Positions 118 to 41,936 are shown, counted from the stretch's first letter. The stretch: 41,936 nucleotides of DNA from a virus (IMGVR_UViG_3300040801_000626:1-41936); one strand, 5' to 3'. Program-made: numbers and translations. Notes: generated by a model not told the origin, from the letters alone.

Positions 118-2062
118 ACCCGTATCAATTAATATGGGTTATGATATTTCAACATTACCTAACGACGTAGTTGATGCCGTAACAGTTGCGGGTCAGTTGC
201 TAGATACCAACCTTACAGTTACTTCCCCTAAAGGGTCCTCCGAGGGGGTGAGTATAGTTACAGCCGGTATGGACGATAAGTCTCTTGCCGAGTTGACCGG
301 GGCCTTAGTGGACGGAGGCTTTACCGGGTTCGAGGAAACCGAAGGCGTATTACATGTCTCCATGCAAGCTCAGGTTCCCTCGACATTTGGGGACGAGGGG
401 GGAAAGCCTTGGGGTGGCTGGACTTACCTCTCCCCTTCTGTTTTAGAGACCTTAAAAGAAAAAGGTTTCGCTCCCGGCGTAGATGCGTCGGCGGTTAAAA
501 GGAATAAAATTCAACCATTAGAAAGTGATATTGACTACGGTAAGCCTACGGGTATTACCGACGAAGAGGGCAAGCCTACGTCCTCGGCCTTAGGTATAGC
601 GCAGTTTATAGATAGCACTTGGTTACGTACGATCAAACGTCCCGACGTTGCCGCCGTTATGGGGATAGACCTTTCACAATCGGACGGAGAGTTATTAGAG
701 CTGCGTAAGAACCCGGAGCTTGCCATCATGGCCTCTGCCGCTTTAGCACGGGATAACAATAGTATTATGAAGAAAGTTATAGGAAGAGACGCTAATGCCG
801 GGGAGCTATACATGGCGCATTTTCTTGGCGCTAACGGGGCTATTAAGTTAATACAAGCCTATAAGAATATGCCGGACCAAAGGGCTAAAGATATTTTCCC
901 GGAGCAGGCTAAGGCTAATAAACCCGTTTTCGAGTATAAGAAGACAGGCAAACATAAAACTATAGCCGAGGTATACGAGGACATTGAGAGCGAATTTACA
1001 CTTACACCTACACAAGTGGCTTACGAAGACGTACAGCTACAACAAAAGGTATTAGCCAAAACAGAAAAAGCGTTGGCCGAGGACCCTATATCCCATGCGT
1101 CTAAAGTTGGTTCCCACCAAGTCAACTCCTTAGAGGATGAAAACGGTTTCGCCGCTCGTTCTGCTACGGCTTTAAACGTTGCTAACTATTATAATATCCC
1201 GGAAGCGGACATTAAGCCCTTTACACAAGACGAGGCTATATACATTAAAGAAAAAATTGACAACGGCACTACGGACGAGGTTCTACAGATCATGGAAGAG
1301 ATTAACACCATGGGACCTAAAATGTCGGTAGCCGCCGCCAAGCAACTTGAAGCCTACGACCCGGTGTTCGCCCATGCCGCAGATTTAAAGACCGCAGGCC
1401 ATGCCAATGTCGCGTCTCAGGTGGTAAGGGGGCAAAAACGTTTACAAGAGAACCCAGAGGTTTTAAAGCAAATTGACGGGGCTACAGAGACCGAAATAGC
1501 CGCGACGTTTATACAGGCAACGGAGGGGGCCTTGTACGATGTTCCTTATAAACATAGGCAGGCTATACAACAGGCCGCGATAGCCCATTATGTTCAACAG
1601 GGATATACCAAGTCTTTTAAAGGCGCAGATTTTAAAAAGTCAGTCAACGCGGTTTTAGGAGGTTCCGATGGACGTAACGTTATTGCCAGTGTTAACGGCT
1701 ACCCAACGCTATTACCCTCCGATATGGACGAAAATACTTTCGAGGCGGCTTTGGATAATATTGGATTACAAGATTTAATGATGATGTCCCCAGACGAAAC
1801 CGTGCCTCGGTACGCGGACGGTACAGTGGTTGACCTTGACGATATTAGAGATGAAGTGAAGCTAGTAGCTCTTGGTAATGACGAATATAATTTAATGTTA
1901 GAGGACGGACAAAAGCTTGTTACAGACCAAGTAAACGCGCAAGGAATGATTAAGTTTTTTATCTTTAAACCGGACGCAGACCGGATGCGTAAAGTAGCCT
2001 CACGACCTTCCAATATAAACTTGGCCTCGGTGGATATGGTTAGTGTTAAGGAAGGGTTTTAA
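5..2062 (+). CDS. Internal virion (ejection) protein with lytic transglycosylase domain; C-terminal 685 codons of the gene that starts at 40762
   Basis: ORF track 5..2062. The GTG at 5 is not a real start: position 5 equals 41824 in the repeat, and both 40762 and 41824 are 1 mod 3, so the frame is continuous. SLT-like motif TDEEGKPTSSALGIAQFIDSTW ... ELYMAHFLGANGA (catalytic-type Glu followed by S-x-x-G-I-A-Q, as in family 1 lytic transglycosylases and the N-domain of T7 gp16). Confidence 0.8.
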   Translation: MDNAATNFNVPASYLGAMVSREYGQYLKPTKVAKDKFKPVSINMGYDISTLPNDVVDAVTVAGQLLDTNLTVTSPKGSSEGVSIVTAGMDDKSLAELTGALVDGGFTGFEETEGVLHVSMQAQVPSTFGDEGGKPWGGWTYLSPSVLETLKEKGFAPGVDASAVKRNKIQPLESDIDYGKPTGITDEEGKPTSSALGIAQFIDSTWLRTIKRPDVAAVMGIDLSQSDGELLELRKNPELAIMASAALARDNNSIMKKVIGRDANAGELYMAHFLGANGAIKLIQAYKNMPDQRAKDIFPEQAKANKPVFEYKKTGKHKTIAEVYEDIESEFTLTPTQVAYEDVQLQQKVLAKTEKALAEDPISHASKVGSHQVNSLEDENGFAARSATALNVANYYNIPEADIKPFTQDEAIYIKEKIDNGTTDEVLQIMEEINTMGPKMSVAAAKQLEAYDPVFAHAADLKTAGHANVASQVVRGQKRLQENPEVLKQIDGATETEIAATFIQATEGALYDVPYKHRQAIQQAAIAHYVQQGYTKSFKGADFKKSVNAVLGGSDGRNVIASVNGYPTLLPSDMDENTFEAALDNIGLQDLMMMSPDETVPRYADGTVVDLDDIRDEVKLVALGNDEYNLMLEDGQKLVTDQVNAQGMIKFFIFKPDADRMRKVASRPSNINLASVDMVSVKEGF

Positions 2063-4062: not shown

Positions 4063-6641
4063 GCTTCGAGACCTGTATACGGGACAATCTCAAACAACGT
4101 AACTTTGGTAAGAAGAGGGCAGACGAGATCATAGAGGATTTTCGTAGCCGCCAACAATTCTATCTCGATAGCGGTAAACAAACCGCCGACGCTTCATTGT
4201 TGGCCATGAATGATACCTTTGAAAACATGTCGCGCAACGCCGCCGAGAGAGCTAAAAGAACCTCGAAGCAGATCGCCGTGCAAGCCGAGATGAAAGATAG
4301 GATTGTAAAATCCCTAAAAGTAAATATGGCTGTATGGGCTAAGGATAATGAAGTAGGGGGCAATCGTGGGAAGGCTTTAGCCAAAGCGGCTATGTCTTTT
4401 ATCGAGAATGATGAACGTATAACCGGGTCTTCCTATGAGGGGCGTTATGAAGTCATAAGGGGTGCGCTATACGCCGTTGCACATGACGTGGTAGAGAAGG
4501 CGGGTAAGGGAACGTTCGGCCTCCAAAAAGGTAAAGCCCACTTAGATAACGTAGTGCGAGAAGTCCTTGGGGAAAATACCGGAGACAAAGCCGCGAGGGA
4601 TATAGCGCAAGGGTGGACTAAAGGGGAGAAGCTCGGCACCCAAATGTTTAATGATGCCGGAGGTTCTATGAACCGTATCGAGGGAGGGTATTTACCGGAC
4701 CCAATGAACTCGTCTGCAAAGCTTGCCGGGTCCGACATTAAAGGCAAAATTAAAAGTAAGATAGACCCAAAGAAAATAGGGGGTAAAGCTTATGACGATT
4801 TTGTTGATATAGCGAATAAGCATTGGGATTGGGATAAAATGAGATGGCCGGACGGCTCCAAGATTAAACCCGCCGACAGACCCGCCGTGATCGAGCGCGT
4901 ATATACCACTAAGGTGTACGACGGAGGTAACAAAGTGGACGATACAAAACTACGTGGTCAAGGCCAAGCTTTAGGTAACATGCTGGACCAACACCGCTTC
5001 GTTCATTATAAGAACGCCGACGGGTGGCTAGAAGCCCATAAACGTTTTGGGGACGGCAACGTCATGGACGTTATGTTCTCTCACTTTAATGACATGTCGC
5101 ACAAGATCGCTATGGTGGAAATATTTGGGCCTAACCCAGACCTAGCTTTTAAAAACCTAGAGGCTATTGTTACCAAAACAGCCTCAGACAATCTCACCCC
5201 GGACGAGCTGAAGAAAGCACAGGCTTTCATGTCAAATCGTGTAGAGAAAGCTTTTCAAGTTGTAAGCAGACAAAACCCTATGGACCCGGAGAGCCTGCCC
5301 GGACAAGCCGCCGTGTCTATCGGTAATATTCTAACCTCGGCGCAATTAGGCTCCGCGTCTTTATTGGCAATACCCGGAGACTTCATGCAAAGTATCGCTA
5401 CAAGGGCCTCTAACAATCTACCTCTATTCGACGGTATAGATATGTACTTTAAAAGCTTAGTCGGGGATAGAGCGTTCATGGACGATATAGCCGTGCAATC
5501 CGGTTACTTGGCCGACGAGCTTATCAGTTCGGTATATGCGACAACCCGCTTTACAGGTATTAACACCGTAGGTCCCGCATGGTCAAAGCGTGTAAGCGAT
5601 ACGGTTATGAGAGCGTCGTTAATGTCCGGCCATACCAAGTCCGCACGACGTACTATACAGTTTGAGTTTATGGGTATGATGCGACGCGACATGGGTAAAG
5701 AGTTTGATACGCTACCGTACAAACCTTTAATGGAGCGTTGGGGTATTACAGCCGAGGAGTGGAACGCTTTTAGAAAAGGGGTCCCGCCGCACTCCCCTCG
5801 TAAGGACATTAACTTCTTACGTCCTATAGATATTTTGAATACGGACATAAAAAACAAAGAGCTAATATATCGTAAGTTTCAAGAGATGATTATTGAAGCG
5901 GCGAGAACGGGGGTGCCGGAAGCGACTATTGGTGCCGCTATAACGCTAAAAGGCAATACGAGACCGGACACCTTTGTGGGTTTATTGCTTCATAGCTTTG
6001 CCATGTATAAGAATTTTGCCCTAACGTTTCCTTTAATATACGGGAGGTTAGGGATGGCTACTAACAATAAAAGGTTAGGGAGGCTTGGATTTTATGCAGG
6101 GTTAGGAGCGGGAATGACGTTAGTAGGTGCTATGGGCCTACAAATGAAAGAGGTCTCTAAAGGTAAAGACCCTATGGCTATGGATAACCCGAAGTTTTGG
6201 GGGGCCGCTTTCTTGGCCGGAGGCTCTACCTCCCTATGGGGGGATTTTATGTTTCGTAACGTGGACGTATACGGAGCAAGCCTAGCCGACGAGGTAGCCG
6301 GACCTTTAGTGGGGTTTGCTAATGATACAAAGACGTTAGCGTTCGGGGATGCCTTTGGTTTCGTAGATGCCTTGACAAACAATGAAGCTTACGAAGCAAA
6401 GTTTGCGGAGAGGCTTACCAACTATGTCAAAAAGTACACACCCGGCACGAATATATGGTGGTCAAGACTTGCATTAGAACGGCAAATATGGGATAGATTA
6501 GAGGAGCTTTCAAACCCGAGGGCTTACTCCAAGCGCCGCCGTAAAGAGAGACGACAAAAAGACGAAGGCGGTAATGAATATTTTTGGCCAATGGGAGAGC
6601 GTATGCCTGATCGTTTACCCCATTATAGGAATAAGGATTAG
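4047..6641 (+). CDS. Large internal virion/ejection protein (864 aa) with hydrophobic Gly-rich segments
   Basis: 864-aa ORF overlapping the upstream gene by 16 nt. C-terminal third has membrane-like segments LGFYAGLGAGMTLVGAMGLQM and FWGAAFLAGGSTSLWGDFMF, consistent with an envelope-spanning ejectosome protein. Function inferred from position. Confidence 0.65.
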   Translation: MFNPVSFETCIRDNLKQRNFGKKRADEIIEDFRSRQQFYLDSGKQTADASLLAMNDTFENMSRNAAERAKRTSKQIAVQAEMKDRIVKSLKVNMAVWAKDNEVGGNRGKALAKAAMSFIENDERITGSSYEGRYEVIRGALYAVAHDVVEKAGKGTFGLQKGKAHLDNVVREVLGENTGDKAARDIAQGWTKGEKLGTQMFNDAGGSMNRIEGGYLPDPMNSSAKLAGSDIKGKIKSKIDPKKIGGKAYDDFVDIANKHWDWDKMRWPDGSKIKPADRPAVIERVYTTKVYDGGNKVDDTKLRGQGQALGNMLDQHRFVHYKNADGWLEAHKRFGDGNVMDVMFSHFNDMSHKIAMVEIFGPNPDLAFKNLEAIVTKTASDNLTPDELKKAQAFMSNRVEKAFQVVSRQNPMDPESLPGQAAVSIGNILTSAQLGSASLLAIPGDFMQSIATRASNNLPLFDGIDMYFKSLVGDRAFMDDIAVQSGYLADELISSVYATTRFTGINTVGPAWSKRVSDTVMRASLMSGHTKSARRTIQFEFMGMMRRDMGKEFDTLPYKPLMERWGITAEEWNAFRKGVPPHSPRKDINFLRPIDILNTDIKNKELIYRKFQEMIIEAARTGVPEATIGAAITLKGNTRPDTFVGLLLHSFAMYKNFALTFPLIYGRLGMATNNKRLGRLGFYAGLGAGMTLVGAMGLQMKEVSKGKDPMAMDNPKFWGAAFLAGGSTSLWGDFMFRNVDVYGASLADEVAGPLVGFANDTKTLAFGDAFGFVDALTNNEAYEAKFAERLTNYVKKYTPGTNIWWSRLALERQIWDRLEELSNPRAYSKRRRKERRQKDEGGNEYFWPMGERMPDRLPHYRNKD

Positions 6642-15717: not shown

Positions 15718-17007
15718 TCAATTCTCCTTTGGTGGTTGAATATATCCGACACCCTCGAACACTTGACGGCTGGAATTAACCGCCTGCCGCCCATCCTCCT
15801 CCGGTACGAGGGTTAAATTACCTGAGGACTCTTTAGTAGTAAAATACGCAAACTGTTTTCCCGCGTCTTCAGCCGCAAGCTTCCGCTTCTTTTTGGCTAC
15901 ACGTTTTTTAAATGCGTCTTTCACTTTACGCTCCGCTTCCGTTATCGTTATAAACTTCTGCGAGAATAGCTTATCTGTGTCACACCCGATCAGCGCCGCT
16001 AACTTAGGGGCTATGTCGTCGGGGTCTCCATTCCAATGCCGCTTTGCCTTGGCCTCTACCAACTTAAATCCCGGTACGTCCTTGCCATTATTGAGCATCT
16101 CATAGGCGTAACTTTCCACGCCGTCTATCCAGTTTTTTAGTAAAGGTAGGGCTTGTAGGATATAACTGATACGCGCTGGAGGTAACGACTTTACGTCTGG
16201 TATCTTAGGACCTTGTATATCCTCCGGCGTATTAAACTCAGGGTTAATAACCTGTACCGCTTTAGCCTGTAGTGCGGGGCAAGCGTAGTTACCGTCGCAA
16301 TATTTGCAATACTCGCCGGGTATCAAGGGCGCATCCGGCTCTTTAGATTTTTTAATAATCTCGTCAAGCTCGAAAAGGTATTCCAGTACATCGACAGGAG
16401 ATAAATCTACCTCTCTAACAATACCGTCTTTGTGAAAGCTATTAGGCTGTACAATTACTAATGTTATTAAATCGAAGTCAGACGGCTTTAATTGGCCGTC
16501 ACCATATAATAACCCTGCGGCATACTGTCGGGGTTGTCTTGCGGTTGTAATATCTACATCTTTATAGCCATGTTTATAATCGGCAATAACGAGGGTCCGG
16601 GCTTTTAAGCTATATATCGCTATATCTAAATAACCTCCCGCATCTCCCGGCGCTTCTGAAACTTGGGGGTTAACATACTCCTCTACCATTAACACCGCGT
16701 CACCGTATACGTCGTTTAGGTCCGCGTAGGTTGCGGCTACCCAATCAAAAGCGGTATTAACAGCATGTATAAAAGAGGAGTCATAATTCTTATCTTTGTG
16801 TTTACTCAGGGCCTTGGCGGCGTGGAACCTATACACACCCTTTTCTAGCCCGGCGGCCAATATGTCGTGGGCCTCGGTGCCAACCCGGGCATAGCCGCCG
16901 TCCCGTCTCGGAGGAACGCGATCTAAAAATGATACGCTCCCCGGACAGTTCGCAATGCGATCTGCCTGAGAGGGAGAATAGCGGCTATGTGGGCGGTCTT
17001 CGTTCAT
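15718..17007 (-). CDS. DUF2800-type PD-(D/E)XK (Cas4-like) nuclease
   Basis: YSPSQADRIANCPGS and GTEAHD at the N-terminus. Core VIADYKHGYKDV (D/E-x-K) and QPRQYAAGLLYG. Cys cluster CKYCDGNYACP. Confidence 0.7.
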   Translation of the reverse strand: MNEDRPHSRYSPSQADRIANCPGSVSFLDRVPPRRDGGYARVGTEAHDILAAGLEKGVYRFHAAKALSKHKDKNYDSSFIHAVNTAFDWVAATYADLNDVYGDAVLMVEEYVNPQVSEAPGDAGGYLDIAIYSLKARTLVIADYKHGYKDVDITTARQPRQYAAGLLYGDGQLKPSDFDLITLVIVQPNSFHKDGIVREVDLSPVDVLEYLFELDEIIKKSKEPDAPLIPGEYCKYCDGNYACPALQAKAVQVINPEFNTPEDIQGPKIPDVKSLPPARISYILQALPLLKNWIDGVESYAYEMLNNGKDVPGFKLVEAKAKRHWNGDPDDIAPKLAALIGCDTDKLFSQKFITITEAERKVKDAFKKRVAKKKRKLAAEDAGKQFAYFTTKESSGNLTLVPEEDGRQAVNSSRQVFEGVGYIQPPKEN

Positions 17008-17357
17008 TACAGGGCAAAAACCTGTAAGGCTAACGGATAATTTGCCTCTGGAATGTCTGAGATTTTAGTAGCGCCACCGACTTCGGCAAACTTTGCCTTC
17101 GTTGCTACGGGGCCGTGAGCGTCCGCGTATGCCTGTACGGCCTGTTGCACTTGGGCCAAGGTTACATTACCGCCCTGCGCCGGAGCCTGTGGGGCCGGAG
17201 CCTGTGGGGCCGGAGCCTGTGGGGCCGGAGCCTGTGGGGCCGGAGCCTGTGGGGCCGGAGCCGGGGCGTGGTTGTTTGCGGGGGCCGGAGCGGCACCACG
17301 GATAGCTTGCATAGCCTCTTCAAGACTATTAAATTTTACGTATACTTCTGGCATCAT
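17007..17357 (-). CDS. Small two-domain protein with (APAPQ)5 linker
   Basis: 116-aa ORF with RBS AAGGAG. The centre is encoded by the 15-bp tandem repeat. No family recognised. Confidence 0.7.
   Translation of the reverse strand: MMPEVYVKFNSLEEAMQAIRGAAPAPANNHAPAPAPQAPAPQAPAPQAPAPQAPAPQAPAQGGNVTLAQVQQAVQAYADAHGPVATKAKFAEVGGATKISDIPEANYPLALQVFAL
17180..17262. repeat. 15-bp tandem repeat, 5 full copies plus an 8-nt partial copy
   Basis: CCGGAGCCTGTGGGG repeated head to tail at 17180, 17195, 17210, 17225 and 17240, then a partial copy at 17255-17262. Encodes APAPQ x5 on the minus strand. Confidence 0.95.
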
Positions 17358-17377
17358 TTTTCTCCTTTAGAGTTTAG
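17354..17377 (-). repeat. 24-bp direct repeat, copy 1 (translation-initiation region of 17007-17357)
   Basis: TCATTTTTCTCCTTTAGAGTTTAG is identical at 17644-17667. The minus strand reads CTAAACTCTAAAGGAGAAAAATGA (RBS + ATG). Confidence 0.9.
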
Positions 17378-17643
17378 ATTTAAGTTAAAAAGTGGTGGGT
17401 TTAGCTATGCTTCTTACTAAAGACATGAACCCTTTTTGTAAGTCCGTTTTAGCGATAGCGAGCCACCTTGGGTCGGCGGGTTCATGTATAGGTACATTAT
17501 TGTCGTGGTGTGTATGAGATAAACGTTCGACAAGGTCTCCTACTTACTCGGCTAAATTTTTAGCTTCGTTCATAAGTTCAATATCCTCTTCGGTTAAATC
17601 TCTATAACCTTTAATCTTTTCGTGTTGATCTTTTACCACGGCT

Positions 17644-17667
17644 TCATTTTTCTCCTTTAGAGTTTAG
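17644..17667 (-). repeat. 24-bp direct repeat, copy 2 (orphan RBS + ATG after the SNF2 gene)
   Basis: Identical to 17354-17377. Here the ATG opens only a 4-codon ORF (MKPW, 17633-17647). Confidence 0.9.
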
Positions 17668-17690
17668 TGTTAAACATGTTTACCGCACCG

Positions 17691-20598: not shown

Positions 20599-20809
20599 TC
20601 ATCACATAATCTACGTTTAAATTCGGGTTATCGAGCATCTCGTGTAGCCGCCTCCAGTGGGTGTTGGTAATGGGGTTGGGAGGGGTGAGACAAGGCGATA
20701 CATAATCCTCGTTGTCTACACCCCACTGTACCCCACAAGCGCCGCAATACCAAGTATCAACTACGCGATACTTTTTGCACTTATTGTATTGTAATGGCTT
20801 CTGTCCCAT
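20573..20809 (-). CDS. Small Cys-rich (zinc-ribbon-like) protein (78 aa)
   Basis: CKKYRVVDTWYCGACGVQW ... SPC gives a C-x(n)-C-x2-C pattern. ATG start. Confidence 0.5.
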   Translation of the reverse strand: MGQKPLQYNKCKKYRVVDTWYCGACGVQWGVDNEDYVSPCLTPPNPITNTHWRRLHEMLDNPNLNVDYVMNGSPDEKV

Positions 20810-22883: not shown

Positions 22884-22895
22884 CGGTTTGTCTCC

Positions 22896-22950
22896 TAAGG
22901 TCTTATTCGGTTAGCTTATCGGGGTAATAGGCTAACCTGATAAAACCTTA
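22896..22950 (-). promoter_or_regulatory. Compound intergenic stem-loop (two helices separated by a 7x7 internal loop)
   Basis: Plus strand TAAGGT(22896-22901)...GGTTAGC(22909-22915)...GCTAACC(22931-22937)...ACCTTA(22945-22950). The outer arm overlaps the stop codon of 22948-23388. Confidence 0.45.
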
Positions 22951-23388
22951 TTTTTTCGTTGGTTCTATCCTCCAAACACGTACCCCACCTTCGACCGGGT
23001 ACACGCGGAATACATAGTCGTCGCCAAGCTTTTTCTGGGCGTTACGACGCGCGCTATTAAGGGCCATGCGTTTACGCTTAACGGCCTCTGTGTATGCTCT
23101 CTTCTTTTCTTGCTCGTTTTTGTAGTTGCCTTCAACGGTAACAGGGAAAAACGCACTCTCCCCTACTTCCATAACGTCAAAGTCATATTTAGACTGTCCG
23201 AACGTTGCCACTTCCGGCATTGGTACGCCTTTTTCAATGGTATGGCCTGCGAGAGTTTTCCCGGTGTCTTTAGCCGTTCCTTTCTCTTCTACTACATCCG
23301 GCTTAGCGGCCTGTGTAGCCTTCTTAGGGGCTACCTTTTTTGGGGCCGGGGTTTTCTTAGCGGCTGGGTTTTTCTTAGCTTTAGTCAT
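22948..23388 (-). CDS. Lys/Ala/Pro-rich (histone H1-like) putative DNA-binding protein, first gene of the second leftward operon
   Basis: Start moved from TTG 23412 to ATG 23388 (AAGGAG 8 nt upstream), because the TTG lies only 10 nt from the -10 of the predicted promoter. N-terminus MTKAKKNPAAKKTPAPKKVAPKKATQAAKP. Confidence 0.65.
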   Translation of the reverse strand: MTKAKKNPAAKKTPAPKKVAPKKATQAAKPDVVEEKGTAKDTGKTLAGHTIEKGVPMPEVATFGQSKYDFDVMEVGESAFFPVTVEGNYKNEQEKKRAYTEAVKRKRMALNSARRNAQKKLGDDYVFRVYPVEGGVRVWRIEPTKK

Positions 23389-23421
23389 TGTTTTTGCTCC
23401 TTTGTTAAACAAGTTTATCCA

Positions 23422-23492: not shown

Positions 23493-23517
23493 AAAAACAG
23501 GCGCTACATGCGCCTGT
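23493..23517 (-). terminator. Rho-independent terminator closing the early ORFan operon
   Basis: Minus strand ACAGGCGC-ATGTA-GCGCCTGT followed by TTTT: a perfect 8-bp GC-rich stem plus a U-tract, about 20 nt after the stop of 23539-23709. Confidence 0.8.
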
Positions 23518-23538: not shown

Positions 23539-23709
23539 TTATAATGCGTCGTCGTAAGGTCGGCTGGCCCTCCTGATCTGCGCTTGCCTTTCCCTCTCTA
23601 AACGACGTTTTAAAGCTTGCCTGTACTCCGTCTCTCTTTCAATTTTGGTATGTAGCGCGTTTATATCGCGGTTAATACCTAACCATTCTCGCAACCAATG
23701 TTTTATCAT
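23539..23709 (-). CDS. Small basic coiled-coil ORF (56 aa)
   Basis: Hand-translated MIKHWLREWLGINRDINALHTKIERETEYRQALKRRLERERQAQIRRASRPYDDAL. Purine-rich AAAGGA sits 7 nt upstream. Last ORF before the terminator; below the track cut-off. Confidence 0.5.
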   Translation of the reverse strand: MIKHWLREWLGINRDINALHTKIERETEYRQALKRRLERERQAQIRRASRPYDDAL

Positions 23710-23713
23710 AACG

Positions 23714-23866
23714 TTATCCTTTCCCTCCTATATAATTATCGCCATTGGCCAAGTGTTTTGATAAAGCGTCAATGTTATACGCGGGGTTAGCGGCTTCACC
23801 CTCCCCGTAGTTGTCGGCAATCCAATTTATCACGGCCTGCTTAATATGTTTTTCAGTTAAAGTCAT
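23714..23866 (-). CDS. Small ORF (50 aa)
   Basis: Hand-translated MTLTEKHIKQAVINWIADNYGEGEAANPAYNIDALSKHLANGDNYIGGKG. Preceded by repeat copy A and AAAGGA. Confidence 0.5.
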   Translation of the reverse strand: MTLTEKHIKQAVINWIADNYGEGEAANPAYNIDALSKHLANGDNYIGGKG

Positions 23867-23888
23867 TTTGCAATCCTTTCTTTTCTAA

Positions 23889-23932
23889 TTAACAGGCTAG
23901 TAACGCCCCTAAGGGCGCTACAGGTCTGTTAA
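23889..23932 (-). repeat. Structured intergenic repeat, copy A (core)
   Basis: Plus strand TTAACAGGCTAGTAACGCCC-CTAA-GGGCGCTACAGGTCTGTTAA. The stop codon of 23929-24291 lies in the right TTAA arm. Confidence 0.9.
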
Positions 23933-24291
23933 TTAGTAGCTACACCCCGCGCTTTTTCGATTGTCCCGCGAATTTCCTTAATACGAAACCACAAGAGATT
24001 AGCTTTTTCTTCCGCGTGACTTCCTACGACGGAACCGCCTGTTAATTCAAGTCGTGCGTTTTTATTAAGAACTTCCCAGTACTCCACAAGCTGTTTTTCC
24101 GCTATTTCCAATGCCCCTAACAATTCAGGTGCGGAGGATATTAAGTCAATGTTAGCTTCTGTTTCGTTCCCGTCTTTCTGTTGAATAGCTTGTGCAATAT
24201 GTTGATTACGGCCCGCAAACACAACAGGATATTTCCCGTTAGCTTTAATATTTCTATGCCAAGGCCCCGGCGTGTGTTTTGACTGTGTCAT
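23929..24291 (-). CDS. ORFan early protein (120 aa)
   Basis: ORF flanked by repeat copies A and B. The TPGPW ... ISSAPELLGALE motif pair resembles widespread uncharacterised phage proteins (from memory). Confidence 0.7.
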   Translation of the reverse strand: MTQSKHTPGPWHRNIKANGKYPVVFAGRNQHIAQAIQQKDGNETEANIDLISSAPELLGALEIAEKQLVEYWEVLNKNARLELTGGSVVGSHAEEKANLLWFRIKEIRGTIEKARGVATN

Positions 24292-24367
24292 TTTATTTTC
24301 CTTTGTTTTATCCCGTTACCATTAACAGGCTAGTAAGGCGCATATAAACGCCTTACAGGTCTATTAA
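24292..24367 (-). repeat. Structured intergenic repeat, copy B (leader + core 24322-24367)
   Basis: The core stem is GTAAGGCG-CATATAAA-CGCCTTAC. The minus-strand leader GGTAACGGGATAAAACAAAGGAAAATAAAATG is identical to copy D. Confidence 0.9.
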
Positions 24368-24925
24368 CTAATAGCTATGGCCTGCTTTATCCAGCCTATC
24401 AATATATCGGCTCAATAAAGCCCCTAGCTTTAAAAGGGCGCTGGATTGCGCGTTTTCGAATAGGTCATAATATCCGTCGTCCGGCTCCCTAACGTCCCCC
24501 GCGCAAGTTGGTGCGGAATATTGCCATTCGGCCAAGGCTTCTATACTTCGACTATCCCCGCGTTCATATAACTCAGCGCAAAGGGAAAACATAGCCCCCA
24601 TGGCGCTCCCCCATTTATCTCCGCTATCCTCACCCAATTTATATTCGGCTTTCAAATCTTGATAAGAATAAAAGTCATTCCTCACCTCTAAATTATAGCC
24701 CCTGTTTTCAAGCTCTTTATATAGCGGGTCAAATTCGGTTGCCTTGGCCTTGGTTCGCTTCATAAAGCTTTTATGTGCCGTGCCATGTTGTCCGGTACGG
24801 GCATAACACCCGATGGTGCCATCACGCTCTTTATGTGTCGGGAATAGGGCTAGTATCTCCCTTTGTCCGTCGGGGTATTTAGGCTTTACAAACAATATGG
24901 GGGTTTTATGCGTGTCTTTTTTCAT
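24368..24925 (-). CDS. ORFan early protein (185 aa)
   Basis: ORF flanked by copies B and C with RBS AAGGAG. No family recognised. Confidence 0.7.
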   Translation of the reverse strand: MKKDTHKTPILFVKPKYPDGQREILALFPTHKERDGTIGCYARTGQHGTAHKSFMKRTKAKATEFDPLYKELENRGYNLEVRNDFYSYQDLKAEYKLGEDSGDKWGSAMGAMFSLCAELYERGDSRSIEALAEWQYSAPTCAGDVREPDDGYYDLFENAQSSALLKLGALLSRYIDRLDKAGHSY

Positions 24926-25011
24926 GTTCTTATTCTCCTTTGTTTTGGCGTCCTATACAATTATAGGCTAGTAAGGCCGCGCCACTATAGCATGGCCTTA
25001 CAGGTCTTTAA
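24926..25011 (-). repeat. Structured intergenic repeat, copy C (diverged leader + core 24961-25011)
   Basis: The core stem is GTAAGGCC-(15-nt loop)-GGCCTTAC, flanked by AGGCTA and AGGTCTTTAA. The stop codon of 25008-25784 lies inside the arm. Confidence 0.85.
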
Positions 25012-25784
25012 TCGTAAGAGGGTGTTTCTGGTATGTTACTTTCTAAAAAGTCCCGCACGTATTTTATAGTGTCATTATCCGCGCTGTCCTCTCCATATAT
25101 CAAGAAAGAATAAGCCTTAACCGTTTTATCTATCCAGTCGCCACGTTCAAAGGCGTATCTATCCAAATCATAAAAATATTCTGTATCGTTAATTTTAATA
25201 CAACCACATAAAGGGCTATCATAAAAGTAATGGGTAAAATCCCATTTTATGCTATCAAGGTCTATGCCCTCCGTGCCCCAAGCGGCTTTTAAGGCTGTTA
25301 CATTAACGATAATTTCAGCATAATCGCCTTGGGAGTAACCCCGAATAGACACGCGCTCTATTTCATCTTTAGGATATAATTCAAGGTTATAGGCATCTAA
25401 ATACTCGTGGTTAAGGTCTTCATAGTTTCCAAGGCTTGGCATAGCGTCAAGAAAACCTAACTCATTTTTAACTTCACGCACTAACGTATCACGTCCCCAT
25501 GTATCAAAGCCGGGAACCTCTTCATTATTAAAGTCTCTTATCTCTTTAAGCCATGAACGCATGGCTTGCGTATCGCCTTTTAACTCTACGTTGTCCCTTA
25601 CATCGTCAAGGGCTATATTACCGTTATCAATGTAATAGTAAACGTCCTTACTACCATATCGTGTCGTGGCATTGGCCATGTGTGTAAAGTTTTCATTAAA
25701 CTCGAATTGCGCTAAGGAACTATCATAGCTTACATGTAATTCAATGTTTATGCCTGTACTGCTTTTATCATAGTTATTTATCAT
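25008..25784 (-). CDS. Acidic ORFan early protein (258 aa)
   Basis: Flanked by copies C and D. My hand count gives 51 D+E against 23 K+R. No family recognised. Confidence 0.7.
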   Translation of the reverse strand: MINNYDKSSTGINIELHVSYDSSLAQFEFNENFTHMANATTRYGSKDVYYYIDNGNIALDDVRDNVELKGDTQAMRSWLKEIRDFNNEEVPGFDTWGRDTLVREVKNELGFLDAMPSLGNYEDLNHEYLDAYNLELYPKDEIERVSIRGYSQGDYAEIIVNVTALKAAWGTEGIDLDSIKWDFTHYFYDSPLCGCIKINDTEYFYDLDRYAFERGDWIDKTVKAYSFLIYGEDSADNDTIKYVRDFLESNIPETPSYD

Positions 25785-25858
25785 TTTATTTTCCTTTGTT
25801 TTATCCCGTTACCATTAACAGGCTAGTAACGCCCTTAGGGGCGCTACAGGTCTATTAA
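25785..25858 (-). repeat. Structured intergenic repeat, copy D (leader + core 25815-25858)
   Basis: The core stem is GTAACGCCC-TTAG-GGGCGCTAC. The leader is identical to copy B. Confidence 0.9.
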
Positions 25859-26689
25859 CTAAACGCTTTCTATCTTGGCTTTAATCTCTTCCCTTGATAA
25901 CGTTGCACTATCTGTAAAAGTGTAACACTTCTTATCTTTCTTAAAGTACCAGTTAACAATATCACCCGTTACACGTTCGGACACATGAAACACGGAACCT
26001 TCCCAACGGCAAGGCGGTAACACCTCTAAAGCATATTCATACTCGCTAGGCTTAATCTGAGAAGGTTCAGTTTTATGGCTGTTTTCATAGTCTGCCAATA
26101 GCTTATCAACCTCTTTTTGGGATACAACTTTACGTCCTTTGTTTTCTGGTTCCTTTAGGTAATCCTCTAAAGTTTTAAACCCGTTATAAGCTACACGTTC
26201 AACACCATCAAAGGTCGTAAAAGTGTGAGTTTGGATACCCGCGTTATATGTGCCTTTACTAGGGTCAATAATCCATCTTGTGGGCTTAGTGGGGTCAATG
26301 GCCATGTTATCCCCTACTAACTCCCATACTGCTACATAGATATTGTCAAAGTCCACGCCACGCCCGGGGCCGCTTATGCCTCTATCAAATATCCACCCTC
26401 GGGCCGCTCTTCTCTCTGTAGTGCCTTTTAGGTGCGTTAGGGGTAGTGCGTCCTCTAAGCTTCCCGAGTAGCTAAAGCGCCCGCTTCGGCTTAGGTGAAA
26501 ACTTCCGCCCTCCCCCGTATCACTAAACATATTAGTCTGGGCGCGGTCTTCATAGACGTGCGTCACCCGCGCATATTGGCCGTCTTTATCCTTGATAAAA
26601 TCCCCAAGCTGTACTCCGCCCGATAAGTTGTAACGCGCTCTTTGTCTCTCGCTTAATATACCTTGGTTAAATTCGCTTACATTATTCAT
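25859..26689 (-). CDS. ORFan early protein (276 aa)
   Basis: Flanked by copies D and E. No family recognised. Confidence 0.7.
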   Translation of the reverse strand: MNNVSEFNQGILSERQRARYNLSGGVQLGDFIKDKDGQYARVTHVYEDRAQTNMFSDTGEGGSFHLSRSGRFSYSGSLEDALPLTHLKGTTERRAARGWIFDRGISGPGRGVDFDNIYVAVWELVGDNMAIDPTKPTRWIIDPSKGTYNAGIQTHTFTTFDGVERVAYNGFKTLEDYLKEPENKGRKVVSQKEVDKLLADYENSHKTEPSQIKPSEYEYALEVLPPCRWEGSVFHVSERVTGDIVNWYFKKDKKCYTFTDSATLSREEIKAKIESV

Positions 26690-26766
26690 TTTATATTCTC
26701 CTTTGTTTTATCCCGTTACCATTAACAGGCTAGTAACGCCCCTAAGGGGCGTTACAGGTCTATTAA
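26690..26766 (-). repeat. Structured intergenic repeat, copy E (leader + core 26722-26766)
   Basis: The core stem is a perfect 10 bp, GTAACGCCCC-TAA-GGGGCGTTAC. The leader is GGTAACGGGATAAAACAAAGGAGAATATAAAATG. Confidence 0.9.
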
Positions 26767-26768
26767 CT

Positions 26769-27209
26769 CTATTCGTTACACTCTGATGTATAGCTAAGCA
26801 TATCTTTTTGGATTAACTGAGTGAATTTGTTAACCGCTTGGGCATGCTCAAGGTCATAATGTCCCTCACCATACCCGCCTCCATTATCGTAGTATTTTGT
26901 ATGTACACTAAACCGCGCTTTGTTTCCTATATCGCTAGTGTTTTCATTTACTATGTAACCATAATGACGCGTAGCTCTTTGTTTAGGGCGCTTATACTCT
27001 GCAACGGTTATAGTGCCTCGTGTCTTTACAAGTTTTTCAAGGTATCTCTTACATTTTGCCTTCTCTGCGCTTGTAAGCTCAAAGCACACAACACTAAAGG
27101 CCATACCATTTTGGTTTACCTCTGTTTCTGTCCCAATCTCTTTATCAAACCATTCTATAAAGGTATCGGCTTGGTGTCCTGTTAGTTCTTGCGTCTCTAA
27201 ATTTGTCAT
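26769..27209 (-). CDS. ORFan early protein (146 aa), first gene of the early operon
   Basis: RBS AAGGAG (AAAACCAAGGAGACTAAGAACATG). Lies about 45 nt downstream of the predicted promoter. Confidence 0.7.
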   Translation of the reverse strand: MTNLETQELTGHQADTFIEWFDKEIGTETEVNQNGMAFSVVCFELTSAEKAKCKRYLEKLVKTRGTITVAEYKRPKQRATRHYGYIVNENTSDIGNKARFSVHTKYYDNGGGYGEGHYDLEHAQAVNKFTQLIQKDMLSYTSECNE

Positions 27210-27257
27210 GTTCTTAGTCTCCTTGGTTTTAACGTTTCATATAACTTACTAACTAGC

Positions 27258-27286
27258 ACCTTATAGCTTTGTTCCGTAGCTGTCAA
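27258..27286 (-). promoter_or_regulatory. sigma70-like early promoter (TTGACA-N17-TAAGGT), leftward
   Basis: Minus strand: TTGACA (27286-27281), 17-nt spacer, TAAGGT (27263-27258). Consensus -35; the -10 keeps T1, A2 and T6. Confidence 0.55.
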
Positions 27287-27778
27287 AACTTTTTTACACG
27301 TATTTAGTATTTAACGCTTTACACCTCTTTACCCCCTAAGATGGGTTTACAAAGTGTAAGGGCTAAAAGTTTAATTAATTCAATGGGTTGCTTGTGGGGC
27401 TTTGAGTTTATTAGACGGGGTTAAACGGCTTATCCAATCTTTAGAGATTGGTACAGCCTTACCCCTCTAAACTCTTAAATGTTTGAGCGATTAGTCCGCT
27501 GTTTACAATTTGTCTAAAGTTTAAACCATGGCCTGTTTGGTAATTAAGGATAGTAAGGACAAGGAATAGAGAGAGGGGACTATTGGGAAACCCTTCCCTC
27601 CTTTTGTGTCCGTTATCGCACACGCCTGTAAGGTGCTGTTATCCTTGCAGTTCTTGGCGCTTGTTTACGTAATATACGTTATCACACTAGCACTATTCAA
27701 TGATTTCAATAGTTTAGCCCTCCCCTAGCATGATATAGGGGTTTAAAAGAGTGACTTTCACGATATGGAAACGACCCC

Positions 27779-27803
27779 GGGGGGTGGGGGGCGGGGAGGG
27801 GGG
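27779..27803 (+). other. G-quadruplex-forming tract (G6-T-G6-C-G4-A-G6)
   Basis: Read directly: GGGGGGTGGGGGGCGGGGAGGGGGG, preceded by CCCC (27775-27778). Four G-runs of at least 4 with 1-nt loops. Confidence 0.7.
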
Positions 27804-27899
27804 CTGATGCGCCGCGAGTAAAAGACCCGCCAATACCCCATCTCTACACATGCTATAAAAAATAATAGAAAGGGGTTTACACTTTGGCAACTTTACACT

Positions 27900-27929
27900 T
27901 TGTTAACTCTAAGGCCCTAAAAATATAAT
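27900..27929 (+). promoter_or_regulatory. sigma70-like promoter (TTGTTA-N18-TATAAT), rightward
   Basis: Perfect -10 TATAAT at 27924-27929 and TTGTTA at 27900-27905. The -35 overlaps the second TTTACACTTTG repeat. Confidence 0.5.
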
Positions 27930-28009
27930 AGGTCTCGCGCACATATACGTTTTTTACATAACAGGCATATAAAACCATGGGGTAGACGAGGGGTGAAAAT
28001 GGAGGTACT

Positions 28010-28919: not shown

Positions 28920-29408
28920 CTAGTTCATAAATTCCCAATCCTCGTCGTCTTCCTCGATCACCTCGGCCTCTATGATAGGCTTATGGTGGTCGAGGTAGTA
29001 GGAGCGAGAAGCTAAGGCGGCACGTTCCCTACCAGCGTTAAGGGCTGTTGTAATAGCTTTGTCGGCGGTAATGGTGTGGCTCACCTCTATTTTATCCCCA
29101 TAGTCCTTAGAGCGGCGTTTAGAGAGTAACCATTTAATATTATCAGATATAACCTTGGCCATTTTAGGGTCCGTATGGCCGTATATAGAGTGGTTATCTA
29201 TCTCTACCAGCGCGTCGGCCATGCTATCCGTACCGCGCTCATAAGCGTCTTCGTACATAGCGTTAAGGGACTCGTCGTTTTTTATGTATTCGTTAAAGAC
29301 CGCCGTAGTTATGTTAGCCTCGTCGCAGGCGGCGGTCACTGTTTTACCGAGGGATATTTTATCTATTGCGAACATAACGCATTTTGTGTAATCGTAAAGT
29401 TGTGTCAT
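28920..29408 (-). CDS. terS: Terminase small subunit, encoded on the opposite strand from terL
   Basis: N-terminal HTH ISLGKTVTAACDEANITTAVFNEYIKNDE. Also YEDAYERGTDSMADALVEI and DNIKWLLSKRRSKDYGDK, matching the widespread terS family whose signature is ...D-x-RKWLLSK-x-PK-x-YGDK (from memory). Confidence 0.7.
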   Translation of the reverse strand: MTQLYDYTKCVMFAIDKISLGKTVTAACDEANITTAVFNEYIKNDESLNAMYEDAYERGTDSMADALVEIDNHSIYGHTDPKMAKVISDNIKWLLSKRRSKDYGDKIEVSHTITADKAITTALNAGRERAALASRSYYLDHHKPIIEAEVIEEDDEDWEFMN

Positions 29409-29542: not shown

Positions 29543-31075
29543 ATGAGTTACCTCAATATAAAAACAGAGGAGCAACTCGCCACTTTTATAGCCGGGTTTT
29601 ATGCGGACCCCTACGGCTTTGTAATGGGTATATTTCCTTGGGGGGAGCCAACTTTGCCCGACGGCTCTCCCAACCCCCTTAAAGATAAAAAAGGCCCTGA
29701 GCCATGGCAGAAGGAACTCCTCGTTGATCTCGGAGTGCATATACGAAACAATTTAGAATTGACGGCCATGGAGCTTGATATGTTCGTATGGAAGTCTGCC
29801 GTCGCCTCCGGCCACGGCGTAGGTAAGTCCGCTATTGTAGCGTGGCTTATTTTATTTTTTATGAGTACCCGGGTAGACACGAGGGGGGCCGTGACGGCCA
29901 ACACCCAATATCAGTTAGAGGATAAGACATGGCCGGAGCTTGCCAAATGGTATAACTTGGCTTTAAATAAACATTGGTTTGAGTGGACGGCCACGGGAAT
30001 ATCTTTTGGAGCATACCCAGATGAAAAGAAGAAAAACTATAAAATTAGCGCGGCTACCGTTTCCAAGGACAACACCGAAGCTTTCGCAGGACTTCACAAC
30101 GAAGGCAAAAGTGTCATTGTCATTTTCGACGAGGCCAGCGGTATTCACCCCAAAATATGGGAGGTCTCCGAGGGGGCTTTAACAGACGGTGAGGCTTTCT
30201 TTTTTGCCTTTGGAAACCCGACACAACCGGAAGGGGAGTTTGCCGACTGTTTCGATAAACACGCAGACCTATACTATAATAGGAGCGTAGATAGTAGGGA
30301 CGTTTCCCATACCAACAAACAAGCTCTACAGAGCATGATTAAAAAATACGGAGAAGACAGTGACGAGATTAAGGTGCGTATCAAAGGGGAGTTTCCAAGT
30401 CAGTCTTTTAACGGCTTTATTGGCACCGACGGGGTACACGCCGCGACACAACGAGAGCTTATCGACGACCCCGGTGCCGCACTTATCATGGGTGTTGACG
30501 TTGCAAGGTTTGGAGACGATAGATCAATTATTGGCTACCGCCAAGGCCGGGACTTCAGGTCAAGACCGTGGAAGGCATTTAGGGGCTTGTCAACGGTACA
30601 ACTCGCCAACATTGCAATGGCCGAAGCCGACATACATAAACCAGACGCTATAGTTATTGAGTCCACCGGACCCGGGGCCGGGGTTATCGACATTATGCGC
30701 GATAGGGGGTATAAAATCATTGAGTGCCACCCAGGGGCGCGGCCCTCTCAGGACTTTGATTTATTTGTAAATGTAAGAGCGTGGAATTGGTCCCGTATGC
30801 GGGATTGGCTATATGAGGTAGGGTGTATACCAGACCACCCAGAATTGTTTAAAGAGTTAACAACTATTTTGTACGGCCTAGATCGCCACGAGCAACGGAT
30901 TAAGATGGAAGCAAAAGAGGATATGAAGAAAAGAGGCTTGCCTTCCCCAGACATTGCCGATATGCTGTCCTTGACATTTTTCGCTCAGATTGCGCGTAGG
31001 GATAGAACCAAAACGTTGCGCCCCAACATGAACCAAAATAAAGCTATAACGGAATATAATGAGTTATCGTATTAA
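29543..31075 (+). CDS. terL: Terminase large subunit
   Basis: Walker A-like ASGHGVGKS and Walker B VIVIFDEASGI. C-terminal RNase H-like nuclease region (IMGVDVARFGDDRS). 510 aa. Confidence 0.9.
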   Translation: MSYLNIKTEEQLATFIAGFYADPYGFVMGIFPWGEPTLPDGSPNPLKDKKGPEPWQKELLVDLGVHIRNNLELTAMELDMFVWKSAVASGHGVGKSAIVAWLILFFMSTRVDTRGAVTANTQYQLEDKTWPELAKWYNLALNKHWFEWTATGISFGAYPDEKKKNYKISAATVSKDNTEAFAGLHNEGKSVIVIFDEASGIHPKIWEVSEGALTDGEAFFFAFGNPTQPEGEFADCFDKHADLYYNRSVDSRDVSHTNKQALQSMIKKYGEDSDEIKVRIKGEFPSQSFNGFIGTDGVHAATQRELIDDPGAALIMGVDVARFGDDRSIIGYRQGRDFRSRPWKAFRGLSTVQLANIAMAEADIHKPDAIVIESTGPGAGVIDIMRDRGYKIIECHPGARPSQDFDLFVNVRAWNWSRMRDWLYEVGCIPDHPELFKELTTILYGLDRHEQRIKMEAKEDMKKRGLPSPDIADMLSLTFFAQIARRDRTKTLRPNMNQNKAITEYNELSY

Positions 31076-40761: not shown

Positions 40762-41936
40762 ATGCCGCAGTTATATAGTAGTAAAATATCGGCAGGGGCT
40801 TTACGCTCCAATACTCCCCCAATGAACTTTTCTATCACCCCGGACGCTTACGGTGCCGGGGTAGGGAGGGCTTTAGGCGCGGCGGCTGAAGGGGTAGGGC
40901 AAGCGGCAGATCAGTTCCGTATATTAGCGGAAAAAGAAAAAGCCCAAGAGGTTGCTACTAGCGTTGCCACTTTCGATGCAACCCAAGAGTTATTAGAGGC
41001 GCGGAACGAAGTAGGACCCGGCGCGGAGGGGTATGCTGAGAAGGCTCCTACTATATATCGGGATGCGGTAGAAAATCATGTAAGGGGTATAAAGGACGAT
41101 AAAGCGCGTAGTGAAACGCGGGACAGTTTATTACAACGTTTGCCAAGCGTTATGTCCCAAGCGGCGACGTATGAGTTTACTACAAGAGCCGAATACTCAA
41201 AATCGCAATCCGACGACGCTATAAAGGCTATCGAAAACCGCGTTATGCTAGACCCTGTTAATTACAGCACCCACCTAGAGGACGGCTTGCGGGTTATTGA
41301 TACGTCGCAAGGGGTTGTAGAAACAGCCAAAAGTAGCATGAAAGCTACCTTTAAAGAAAATATGGCAAGTACCTACTTTGGTAGTAGGTTACAAAAAGCC
41401 ACAACTTTACAAGAGTTTGACGGGTTGGCCTTAGAGTTAGCGGAGGGTAAAACACGGGATTGGACAAAAGAGTTTAGTCCTGAAGGGTTACAACGTACTT
41501 TAAACGCTATAGGGGTTGCTAAGAAAACATACCAAAACGAGGTACGATCTGCGGCGAGTTCTGCCGTACAAATGTTAGAAGGCCGCGTCGAGGATTTAAT
41601 ACCTACAAATGAATTGGCCAACGCGCAGGCGACGGTTAAACAACTTGGTAACGACCCAGAGAGTATAAATGTAAAGCGCCGTATGGCTCGGGTTATGCGT
41701 AACCAAGAGATCATTAAAGGGGTACAAAGATTGGCCCCCTCCGAGCAACGCACCCTGCTTAACCAGCGTAACGGAGGCCCTAACTTATCCTACCCGGGAT
41801 TGCCTCAAAGGGTATCGTCTGCGGTGGATAATGCGGCCACTAATTTTAACGTACCCGCTTCTTATCTAGGGGCTATGGTTAGCCGGGAATACGGTCAATA
41901 CCTAAAGCCTACTAAGGTAGCCAAAGATAAATTTAA
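40762..41936 (+). CDS. N-terminal part of the wrap-around internal virion protein (continues at 118..2062 of the circular map)
   Basis: ATG 40762 lies 3 nt after the upstream stop. I translated it by hand to the window end without meeting a stop (MPQLYSSKISAGALRSNTPP ... GLPQRVSSAVDNAATNF...). It is not in the ORF track because it has no stop inside the window. Confidence 0.8.
   Translation, partial: MPQLYSSKISAGALRSNTPPMNFSITPDAYGAGVGRALGAAAEGVGQAADQFRILAEKEKAQEVATSVATFDATQELLEARNEVGPGAEGYAEKAPTIYRDAVENHVRGIKDDKARSETRDSLLQRLPSVMSQAATYEFTTRAEYSKSQSDDAIKAIENRVMLDPVNYSTHLEDGLRVIDTSQGVVETAKSSMKATFKENMASTYFGSRLQKATTLQEFDGLALELAEGKTRDWTKEFSPEGLQRTLNAIGVAKKTYQNEVRSAASSAVQMLEGRVEDLIPTNELANAQATVKQLGNDPESINVKRRMARVMRNQEIIKGVQRLAPSEQRTLLNQRNGGPNLSYPGLPQRVSSAVDNAATNFNVPASYLGAMVSREYGQYLKPTKVAKDKF
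41820..41936. repeat. Right copy of the 117-bp terminal direct repeat
   Basis: Identical to 1-117. Confidence 0.95.

Follow-up and report, generated by a model that had tools for sequence, protein, structure and literature searches.

The early operon of phage T7 is the textbook case of a message punctuated gene by gene by RNase III. Substrates of the E. coli enzyme are about two helical turns long, an internal loop confines the cut to one strand, and the 3' hairpin left after the cut protects the RNA from exonucleases (PMC1540722, PMC3867540). In T4-type phages, the PeSL (promoter-early stem-loop) is a terminator-like stem-loop joined to a sigma-70 early promoter (PMC4122927). Here we describe five repeated hairpin elements, named A to E, on the minus strand of the phage sequence IMGVR_UViG_3300040801_000626:1-41936 (41,936 nucleotides (nt), the whole of which is referred to as the window; positions 23,867-26,766 are shown). 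The elements stand between genes of the early operon, and most likely add a new sequence family to an already known kind of device, rather than being an undescribed system.

Five two-tiered hairpins between early genes

Each of the five elements occupies a gap of 62-82 nt between g1 and g6 of the leftward operon (Table 1). The pattern AGGCTAGTAA-N8-30-TACAGGTCT has exactly five matches in the window and was found in 0 of 100 shuffled sequences, which bears out the claim of an earlier note on this DNA that five copies fill these gaps. The core coordinates proposed there were right for A, B, D and E, while C is better given as 24960-25012 than as 24961-25011. Two further details had to be amended: the 3' flank consensus on the plus strand is YTACAGG, not TTACAGG, and the array had been called one of small genes, although its genes (146, 276, 258, 185, 120 and 50 amino acids (aa)) are not all small.

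On the mRNA strand, every copy presents the same order: stop codon, lower stem UUAAYAG, ACCU, upper stem from GUA, loop, upper stem to UAC, UAGC, CUGUUAA, leader, Shine-Dalgarno sequence and AUG. The lower tier is an AU-rich stem of 7-11 base pairs (bp) and the upper tier a variable, GC-rich stem of 9-11 bp. Between them lies the internal loop ACCU/UAGC, symmetric (4x4) with a central C-G, which reads ACCU(GU)/(AC)UAGC with its closing pairs. The two conserved halves are separated by 19 to 28 nt, depending on the copy. As the earlier note had described, the upstream stop codon falls inside the arm (A and C) or next to it (0 nt off in B and D, 2 nt off in E). The hairpins are located 22-35 nt upstream of the start codons and leave the ribosome-binding sites uncovered. 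All copies are intergenic; g1 is preceded by a promoter and g7 followed by a terminator, with no element at either place.

The minus-strand folds (-21.8 to -30.7 kcal/mol, n=5) are all far below those of shuffled sequences (z -4.3 to -7.9), so that the comparison with shuffled controls suggested in the earlier note came out in favour of all five copies. All eight wobble cells in the alignment described below form G.U pairs when read as mRNA, whereas the opposite strand would have A.C in their place. Six of the eight sequences have a U.G in the lower stem; the other two cells are a G.U in the upper stem of A and D, an imperfect position already noticed in the earlier note, with A.C on the plus and G.U on the minus strand. 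The argument for the mRNA strand rests on which positions vary and not on energy, because the plus strand folds almost as well.

Table 1. Coordinates of the elements, leaders, genes and transcription signals of the early operon and its vicinity
Feature	Coordinates	Strand	Description	Fold (kcal/mol)	z
Element E	26722..26766	-	g1/g2 gap; lower stem UUAAUAG/CUGUUAA, internal loop ACCU/UAGC, 10-bp upper stem, 3-nt loop; 68 bits	-25.1	-5.3
Element D	25815..25858	-	g2/g3 gap; upper-stem G.U wobble on the mRNA strand	-22.6	-4.3
Element C	24960..25012	-	g3/g4 gap; extended apical part; lower stem AUUAAAG/CUAUAAU with one A.A mismatch; g3 stop in arm	-26.4	-5.0
Element B	24322..24367	-	g4/g5 gap; upper stem GUAAGGCG/CGCCUUAC, a compensatory variant	-21.8	-4.4
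Element A	23889..23932	-	g5/g6 gap; palindrome reaches 23885-23936; g5 stop inside lower stem	-30.7	-7.9
Unrelated two-tier hairpin	22895..22950	-	g8/g9 gap, starts on the g8 stop; same architecture, other sequence	-25.0	
g2 leader and Shine-Dalgarno	26690..26721	-	UGGUAACGGGAUAAAACAAAGGAGAAUAUAAA; type common to B, D and E		
g3 leader and Shine-Dalgarno	25785..25814	-	Same type as B and E		
g4 leader and Shine-Dalgarno	24926..24959	-	79% similar to the g1 leader		
g5 leader and Shine-Dalgarno	24292..24321	-	With the adjoining hairpin half, 100% identical to copy D over 49 nt		
g6 leader and Shine-Dalgarno	23867..23888	-	Short, unlike the other leaders		
g1	26769..27209	-	146 aa, ORFan, without family match		
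g2	25859..26689	-	276 aa; homologs of 42-51% identity in early arrays of unrelated phages		
g3	25008..25784	-	258 aa; weak match to phrog_25822		
g4	24368..24925	-	185 aa, ORFan		
g5	23929..24291	-	120 aa; phrog_1273 (function unknown)		
g6 + g7	23539..23866	-	50 aa + 56 aa; last genes of the operon, 4 nt between them, no element there		
Sigma-70-like promoter	27258..27286	-	TTGACA, 15 nt to TATAAG or 17 nt to TAAGGT; upstream of g1		
Intrinsic terminator	23493..23517	-	ACAGGCGC-AUGUA-GCGCCUGU then UUUUU; canonical, closes the operon after g7; read from sequence		

Relatives of the window were fetched by terminase, 65 from IMG/VR and 77 from metagenomes. A covariance model trained on the five window copies only, as the earlier note had proposed, was run on 0.9 Mb of these relatives and gave two matches and no others; these lie in the leftward early array of the relative L021, on the sense strand in each case (32.8 bits, E ~1e-6). 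With a pattern built from the L021 copies, the element was found in three more contigs, one of which is the contig of L016. In the four uncultured relatives, the element adjoins entirely different genes from those of the window, and the terminases of the element-bearing relatives are 57-67% identical to the window's.

Covariation was assessed on an alignment of eight distinct sequences from four genomes (the window, L021, L175 and L176). Paired cells make up 99.2% of the alignment, against 29-45% in slid controls, and compensatory changes on both sides are found in 9/16 pairs. The covariation score is 0.585 vs 0.206 in shuffles, a value of 0.585 being reached by 0/500 of them. The lower stems differ wholly between the window (UUAAUAG/CUGUUAA) and the L021 group (AUUGUUU/AAGCAAU), yet are complementary in both, and the twelve bases ACCUGU/ACUAGC (internal loop and closing pairs) are invariant in 8/8 sequences. 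The element is a conserved family and its structure is under selection; the apical stems quoted in the earlier note were correct, and covariation within the window and across the four relatives leads to the same conclusion that it had drawn from them.

Searches elsewhere gave no further members. Rfam returned no family for the element, the strict pattern had 0 matches in the JGI metagenomes, the single match of the pattern in IMG/VR lies in a coding region without a hairpin and is attributed to chance, and the terminase-based metagenome loci held no further copies. A match to ACCTGT...ACTAGC in L010 was not counted as a member: its geometry is different and its fold is no better than shuffles (z -1.1). 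A blanket local-hairpin scan over all relatives was too noisy to use. Two-tier hairpins anchored on stop codons also occur in gaps of 62-100 nt in five relatives (L008, L009, L010, L021 and L025), where they form sequence families of their own. Their lower part is AU-rich and their upper stem, of 8-11 bp, is GC-rich; an internal loop divides the two, and repeated leaders follow. A second hairpin family, E2, is present at L021 2935-2985, L009 ~4865-4930 and L176 1318-1372 and absent from the window; its lower and middle parts (AACGGCUUAUAG...AUAAACCGUU) are conserved and its GC-rich upper stem varies. In the window, the leftward transcription units contain strong gap hairpins other than the elements, the one in the g8/g9 gap (Table 1) and another at 20669-20736, after a 369-aa gene.

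The leaders behind the hairpins are also repeated. An almost identical leader had been reported after B, D and E, and a 30-nt leader is indeed common to these three copies, with complete identity of B and D over a longer stretch (Table 1). The copies are mosaic, since B combines the leader of D and E with the stem type of C, and the hairpin-plus-leader modules supply 45-75 bp of near-identity between genes. A different module, of 34 nt (leader and ribosome-binding site), stands before two other leftward genes at 17350-17383 and 17640-17673 (91% identity), so that leaders also recur outside the early array.

Comparison with the T7 RNase III sites

The T7 sites (R0.3, R0.5, R0.7, R1, R1.1 and R1.3) resemble the elements in several respects. 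Both are placed in intercistronic gaps of 50-80 nt, in an early operon of the host polymerase that ends in an intrinsic terminator; both have two stems, the upper of ~10 bp, with an internal loop between them and the stop codon in or next to the lower one; and both are repeated families with a conserved loop region, variable tips and G.U pairs on the mRNA strand. The two phages share, in addition, a T7-type gp14 and a Gp2.5-like protein. The T7 early regions that hold the RNase III sites on Dunn and Studier's map were folded, the RefSeq record carrying no annotation of the sites. R0.3, R0.5, R1 and R1.3 each gave a lower stem and, beyond an internal loop, an upper stem of 9-10 bp; for R1.1 the upper stem only was predicted, and the R0.7 stretch gave no stable structure. 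Most of the folded T7 early regions share ACUCAAGGUC...GGCCUUUAUGAU, the T7 early gaps measure 48-80 nt, and the R0.5 stop codon lies in the lower stem.

The analogy with these sites, first drawn in the earlier note, thus holds for the two-tier shape and for the size of the gaps, and three features of T7-type RNase III signals (intercistronic place, two-turn hairpin with internal loop, pairing on the mRNA strand) were found in the elements. The same note took gene-by-gene punctuation in a small podovirus to be undescribed; this view is not supported, given the T7 early operon and the T7-type gp14 of the window phage. There are also differences. Unlike the asymmetric loop of the T7 sites, that of the elements is symmetric (4x4); they contain far fewer wobble pairs, which makes the DNA nearly a perfect palindrome; the hairpin is succeeded by a shared leader; and the phage has no recognisable RNA polymerase of its own. 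This last point, which agrees with the earlier note, refers to the scanned open reading frames (ORFs), namely all ORFs of at least 100 aa that were taken as genes, together with g6 and g7, the main small ORFs of the early array.

We read the five elements as signals for host RNase III processing and 3'-hairpin stabilisation, and assign this reading a probability of about 0.5; that they have a role of any sort in mRNA processing or stability is decidedly more probable. In the proposed mechanism, host RNase III, which is double-strand-specific, would bind the quasi-continuous helix of about two helical turns, and the internal loop would restrict it to one strand, with the cut on the 3' side. Cutting would split the operon into single-gene mRNAs: the upstream mRNA would end in the hairpin, which would bar 3'-exonucleases, and the downstream mRNA would begin with an unstructured A-rich leader and a strong Shine-Dalgarno sequence. 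As a side effect, the hairpin-plus-leader repeats probably act as recombination joints, at which early accessory genes would be lost, gained or swapped.

Several observations weigh against RNase III cleavage. No sequence homology to the T7/T3 sites was found, and the covariance model matched nothing in the T7 early region (L072). If the elements were cut in the loop as R1.1 is, position 2 of the proximal box would be U-A, which is allowed, and position 3 G-C, which is non-canonical by rules that are those of E. coli and may not be the host's; such base-pair rules differ between species (PMC1540722). The fourth pair in L021 is also G-C, and a G-C closes the upper stem. The plus strand folds 0.4-3.6 kcal/mol worse than the minus strand, which is near-equal antisense stability, whereas the strands of the T7 sites differ by 7-15 kcal/mol, so that the strand signal of the elements is much weaker. 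Read on the antisense strand, the bases of the invariant internal loop would form G.U, C-G and U.G pairs, with one A.A mismatch. Finally, a plain GC-rich hairpin could stabilise mRNA without cleavage.

That last point leads to the best surviving alternative, namely that the hairpins act at the RNA level as passive intercistronic stabilisers or insulators, uncut by RNase III, which would block 3'-exonucleases after cuts elsewhere (e.g. by RNase E in the A-rich leader) and set the stability of each cistron. We regard this as unlikely. The placement of GC-rich upper stems directly after stop codons, with an A-rich single-stranded leader behind each hairpin, would suit such a role, as would the G-C pair at the position where E. 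coli RNase III prefers A-U and the identical placement of hairpins in relatives with quite different sequences. The hairpins of the repetitive extragenic palindromic (REP) type in malEFG and those of the puf operon are comparable: GC-rich, just past a stop codon inside an operon, and without a U-tract. An exonuclease block, however, requires the upper stem only, and in the elements the AU-rich lower stem is kept by compensatory changes (window vs L021 group, as given above) and the 12-nt region of the internal loop is invariant across phages. The lower stem and loop are under selection although neither is needed for an exonuclease barrier, and the element, unlike the REP and puf hairpins, is absent from bacterial genomes. 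The kept lower stem and the invariant loop therefore suggest a reader of a long helix and of a specific loop.

Gene exchange at the element borders and remaining readings

Gene content changes at the borders of the elements. Genes g1-g7 have no homologs in the arrays of relatives that keep g8, g14 and the small terminase subunit, and homologs of g2 are found in early arrays of unrelated phages. In L175, L176, L177 and L178, shared genes are interleaved with ORFans, and the element (family E1, that of the window) that follows the shared gene F1 in L177, L178 and L175 is succeeded each time by a different gene (113, 60 and 87 aa). L175 carries at 628-705 (minus strand) a chimera, in which the 5' half of E2 (UAACGGCUUAUAGG) is joined to a 3' half that matches the E1 copy of L175 exactly; the fold of the chimera does not surpass that of shuffled sequences, and it looks like a recombination scar. 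From the gene replacement at element borders and this chimera, it follows that recombination at the elements has happened in the clade. The replacements, which bear on the question of the earlier note whether genes between repeats are swapped in relatives, were seen among L175-L178.

These observations favour the idea that the elements are primarily DNA-level recombination modules, a podovirus counterpart of the T4-type PeSLs, any role as RNA being secondary. Consistent with it are the mosaic copies of the window and the Gp2.5-like annealing protein and exonuclease encoded by the phage. As with the PeSLs (PMC2839356, PMC4122927), short repeated modules with a stem-loop lie in a hypervariable region beside ORFans, gene content differs at their borders between relatives, and one element is recombinant. 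The PeSL analogy of the earlier note stands in this respect, but the sigma-70 promoter half that defines a PeSL is absent, and the elements differ from PeSLs further by their two-tiered hairpin with a conserved internal loop and by the ribosome-binding leader after it. Recombination needs identity and not a hairpin, which leaves the compensatory changes, the mRNA-strand wobbles, the invariant loop and the anchoring to stop codons unexplained, and no close relative of the window was found in which an insertion or deletion at its five copies could be seen. Recombination as the primary function is improbable; PeSL-like shuffling as a side-role, a by-product of the elements, is plausible.

A broader and speculative picture, which we would not expect to hold in full, is that the hairpin-plus-leader units (E1 and E2) might be portable expression cassettes of a clade of T7-like podoviruses without RNA polymerase. 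The element would be constant and the genes exchangeable, the loop would be read by a dedicated factor or, in a manner specific to the clade, by the host's RNase III, and recombination within the hairpins would drive the turnover of anti-host ORFans, as in a promoter-less counterpart of the PeSLs.

It is more doubtful still that the elements are binding sites for a phage or host protein other than RNase III that reads ACCU/UAGC, be it an endoribonuclease, a translational regulator or a DNA-binding dimer. The twelve invariant nucleotides, kept across phages with terminases 57-67% identical, are more than pairing alone requires; as DNA the element is a near-palindrome with both strands equally stable; and candidate readers exist among the conserved early proteins of unknown function, e.g. 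the lysine-rich g8 (DUF7303) and the 369-aa helix-turn-helix protein g14. Homologs of g8 and g14, however, also occur in relatives without this element family, a double-stranded DNA operator would conserve its sequence and not covary, the hairpins stand clear of the start codons and leave the ribosome-binding sites free, and a conserved loop sequence is shared by the T7 RNase III sites as well.

It is scarcely credible that the elements are transcription signals, whether leaky terminators or attenuators that lack a U-tract, or promoters read by a phage polymerase or sigma factor that escaped recognition: conserved sequences in front of genes and several large unannotated virion proteins can be cited in favour, but no U-tract follows the hairpins although the same operon ends with a textbook U-tract terminator, no -35/-10 match was found at the elements by scan or by eye, the first gene lacks an element yet has a sigma-70-like promoter, the conserved halves vary in spacing, and no polymerase or sigma family match was obtained among the scanned ORFs.

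Known classes of element were rejected as follows. The tails UGGUAACG, UUAGAAAA and UUGUAUAG have no U-tract and none of the five copies was listed by the terminator scan, so that the earlier note was right to exclude intrinsic terminators. The true terminator of the operon has a U-tract; terminators with a U-tract are therefore in use in the host of the phage, and the elements are of another nature. For sigma-70 promoters, no promoter-like site was present at or just after any element, and no -10 with a proper -35. Promoters of a T7-type phage polymerase were rejected on the lack of a polymerase match, the variable spacing and the absence of a copy before the first gene. Integron attC sites are likewise imperfect palindromes with a conserved outer stem, an unpaired centre and a variable top, which separate promoterless cassettes of unknown function; unlike them, the elements lack the core sites RYYYAAC/GTTRRRY (the ends are CATTAAC and CTATTAA on the plus strand, GTTAATA and GTTAATG on the minus strand), no integrase was found among the scanned ORFs, and the wobbles point to RNA. 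Host REP elements or miniature inverted-repeat transposable elements were rejected since the pattern has 24 single, scattered matches in 185,579 species genomes, at 12-22 bits vs 55-68 for true copies.

The early operon and the phage

We infer that the operon is transcribed leftward by the host RNA polymerase as an early polycistronic mRNA, from ~27260 to the terminator near 23500. The g1 promoter was read by eye from the sequence and is not listed by the promoter scan; at the homologous positions, L021 has TTGACA-N17-TACATG and L176 TTGACA-N17-TATGTA. The homologs of g2 in L067-L071 are among the first genes of early arrays in phages with unrelated terminases, which suggests that g2 is a widely exchanged early gene of unknown function. 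The protein g8 (22948-23412), which has a lysine/alanine/proline-rich, histone-H1-like N-terminus and may bind nucleic acid, is with g14 among the few early proteins kept in relatives.

Upstream of g1, ~650 nt of the region 27210-27930 are without a convincing gene. This region contains a C-rich tract at ~27812-27775 (CAGCCCCCCCTCCCCGCCCCCCACCCCCC), several GTGTAAA/TTGTAAAC repeats, a strong local fold at 27474-27403 (-31.1 kcal/mol) and divergent promoter-like sites near 27862-27929; such a region could have a control, origin or packaging function. A comparable C-rich tract is present in L010 at ~3600.

The phage genome is ~41.8 kb and circularly assembled. Bases 1-117 recur exactly at 41820-41936; because an open frame appears to be continuous over the junction, into 5-2062, this 117-nt duplication probably arose where the ends of a circular contig overlapped in assembly, and does not represent a terminal repeat of the physical genome. 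The genes are oriented leftward from ~27.2 kb (early genes, then replication genes) and rightward from 29.5 kb (packaging, structure and lysis genes). Packaging and virion genes were recognised for the terminase, portal, capsid and tail proteins, a virion protein bearing a transglycosylase and an internal virion protein of the T7-type gp14 family; several large virion proteins are without annotation. The recognised replication genes encode a family A DNA polymerase, a primase-helicase, the Gp2.5-like single-strand-binding protein and the exonuclease. No RNA polymerase, sigma factor, integrase or tyrosine recombinase was recognised among the scanned ORFs. The gene of the Sf6-type small terminase subunit (28920-29408) is on the opposite strand from that of the large subunit (29543-31075), so that the two are divergent, an arrangement also seen in relatives. 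At 17164-17277, six tandem 15-nt repeats code for (APAPQ)x6 in the mid-part of a 116-aa protein (17007-17357, minus strand).

Cultured phages are distant (terminase at most 43%, polymerase at most 35% identity), and near and distant searches gave no DNA-level match to any of them. Ralstonia phage RpY1, among the nearest (terminase 40%, DNA polymerase 33.5% identity), has short intergenic gaps without hairpins of the element type.

The elements do not overturn current understanding. If the RNase III reading were confirmed, an uncultured clade of polymerase-less T7-like phages would share the strategy of T7, in which host RNase III cuts the early operon into stable mRNAs of one gene each. The chimeric element of L175 is a concrete trace of early-gene shuffling, and the elements are landmarks for the borders of fast-evolving early genes, likely with anti-host or anti-defence functions, which could be used to find and delimit such genes in metagenomes.

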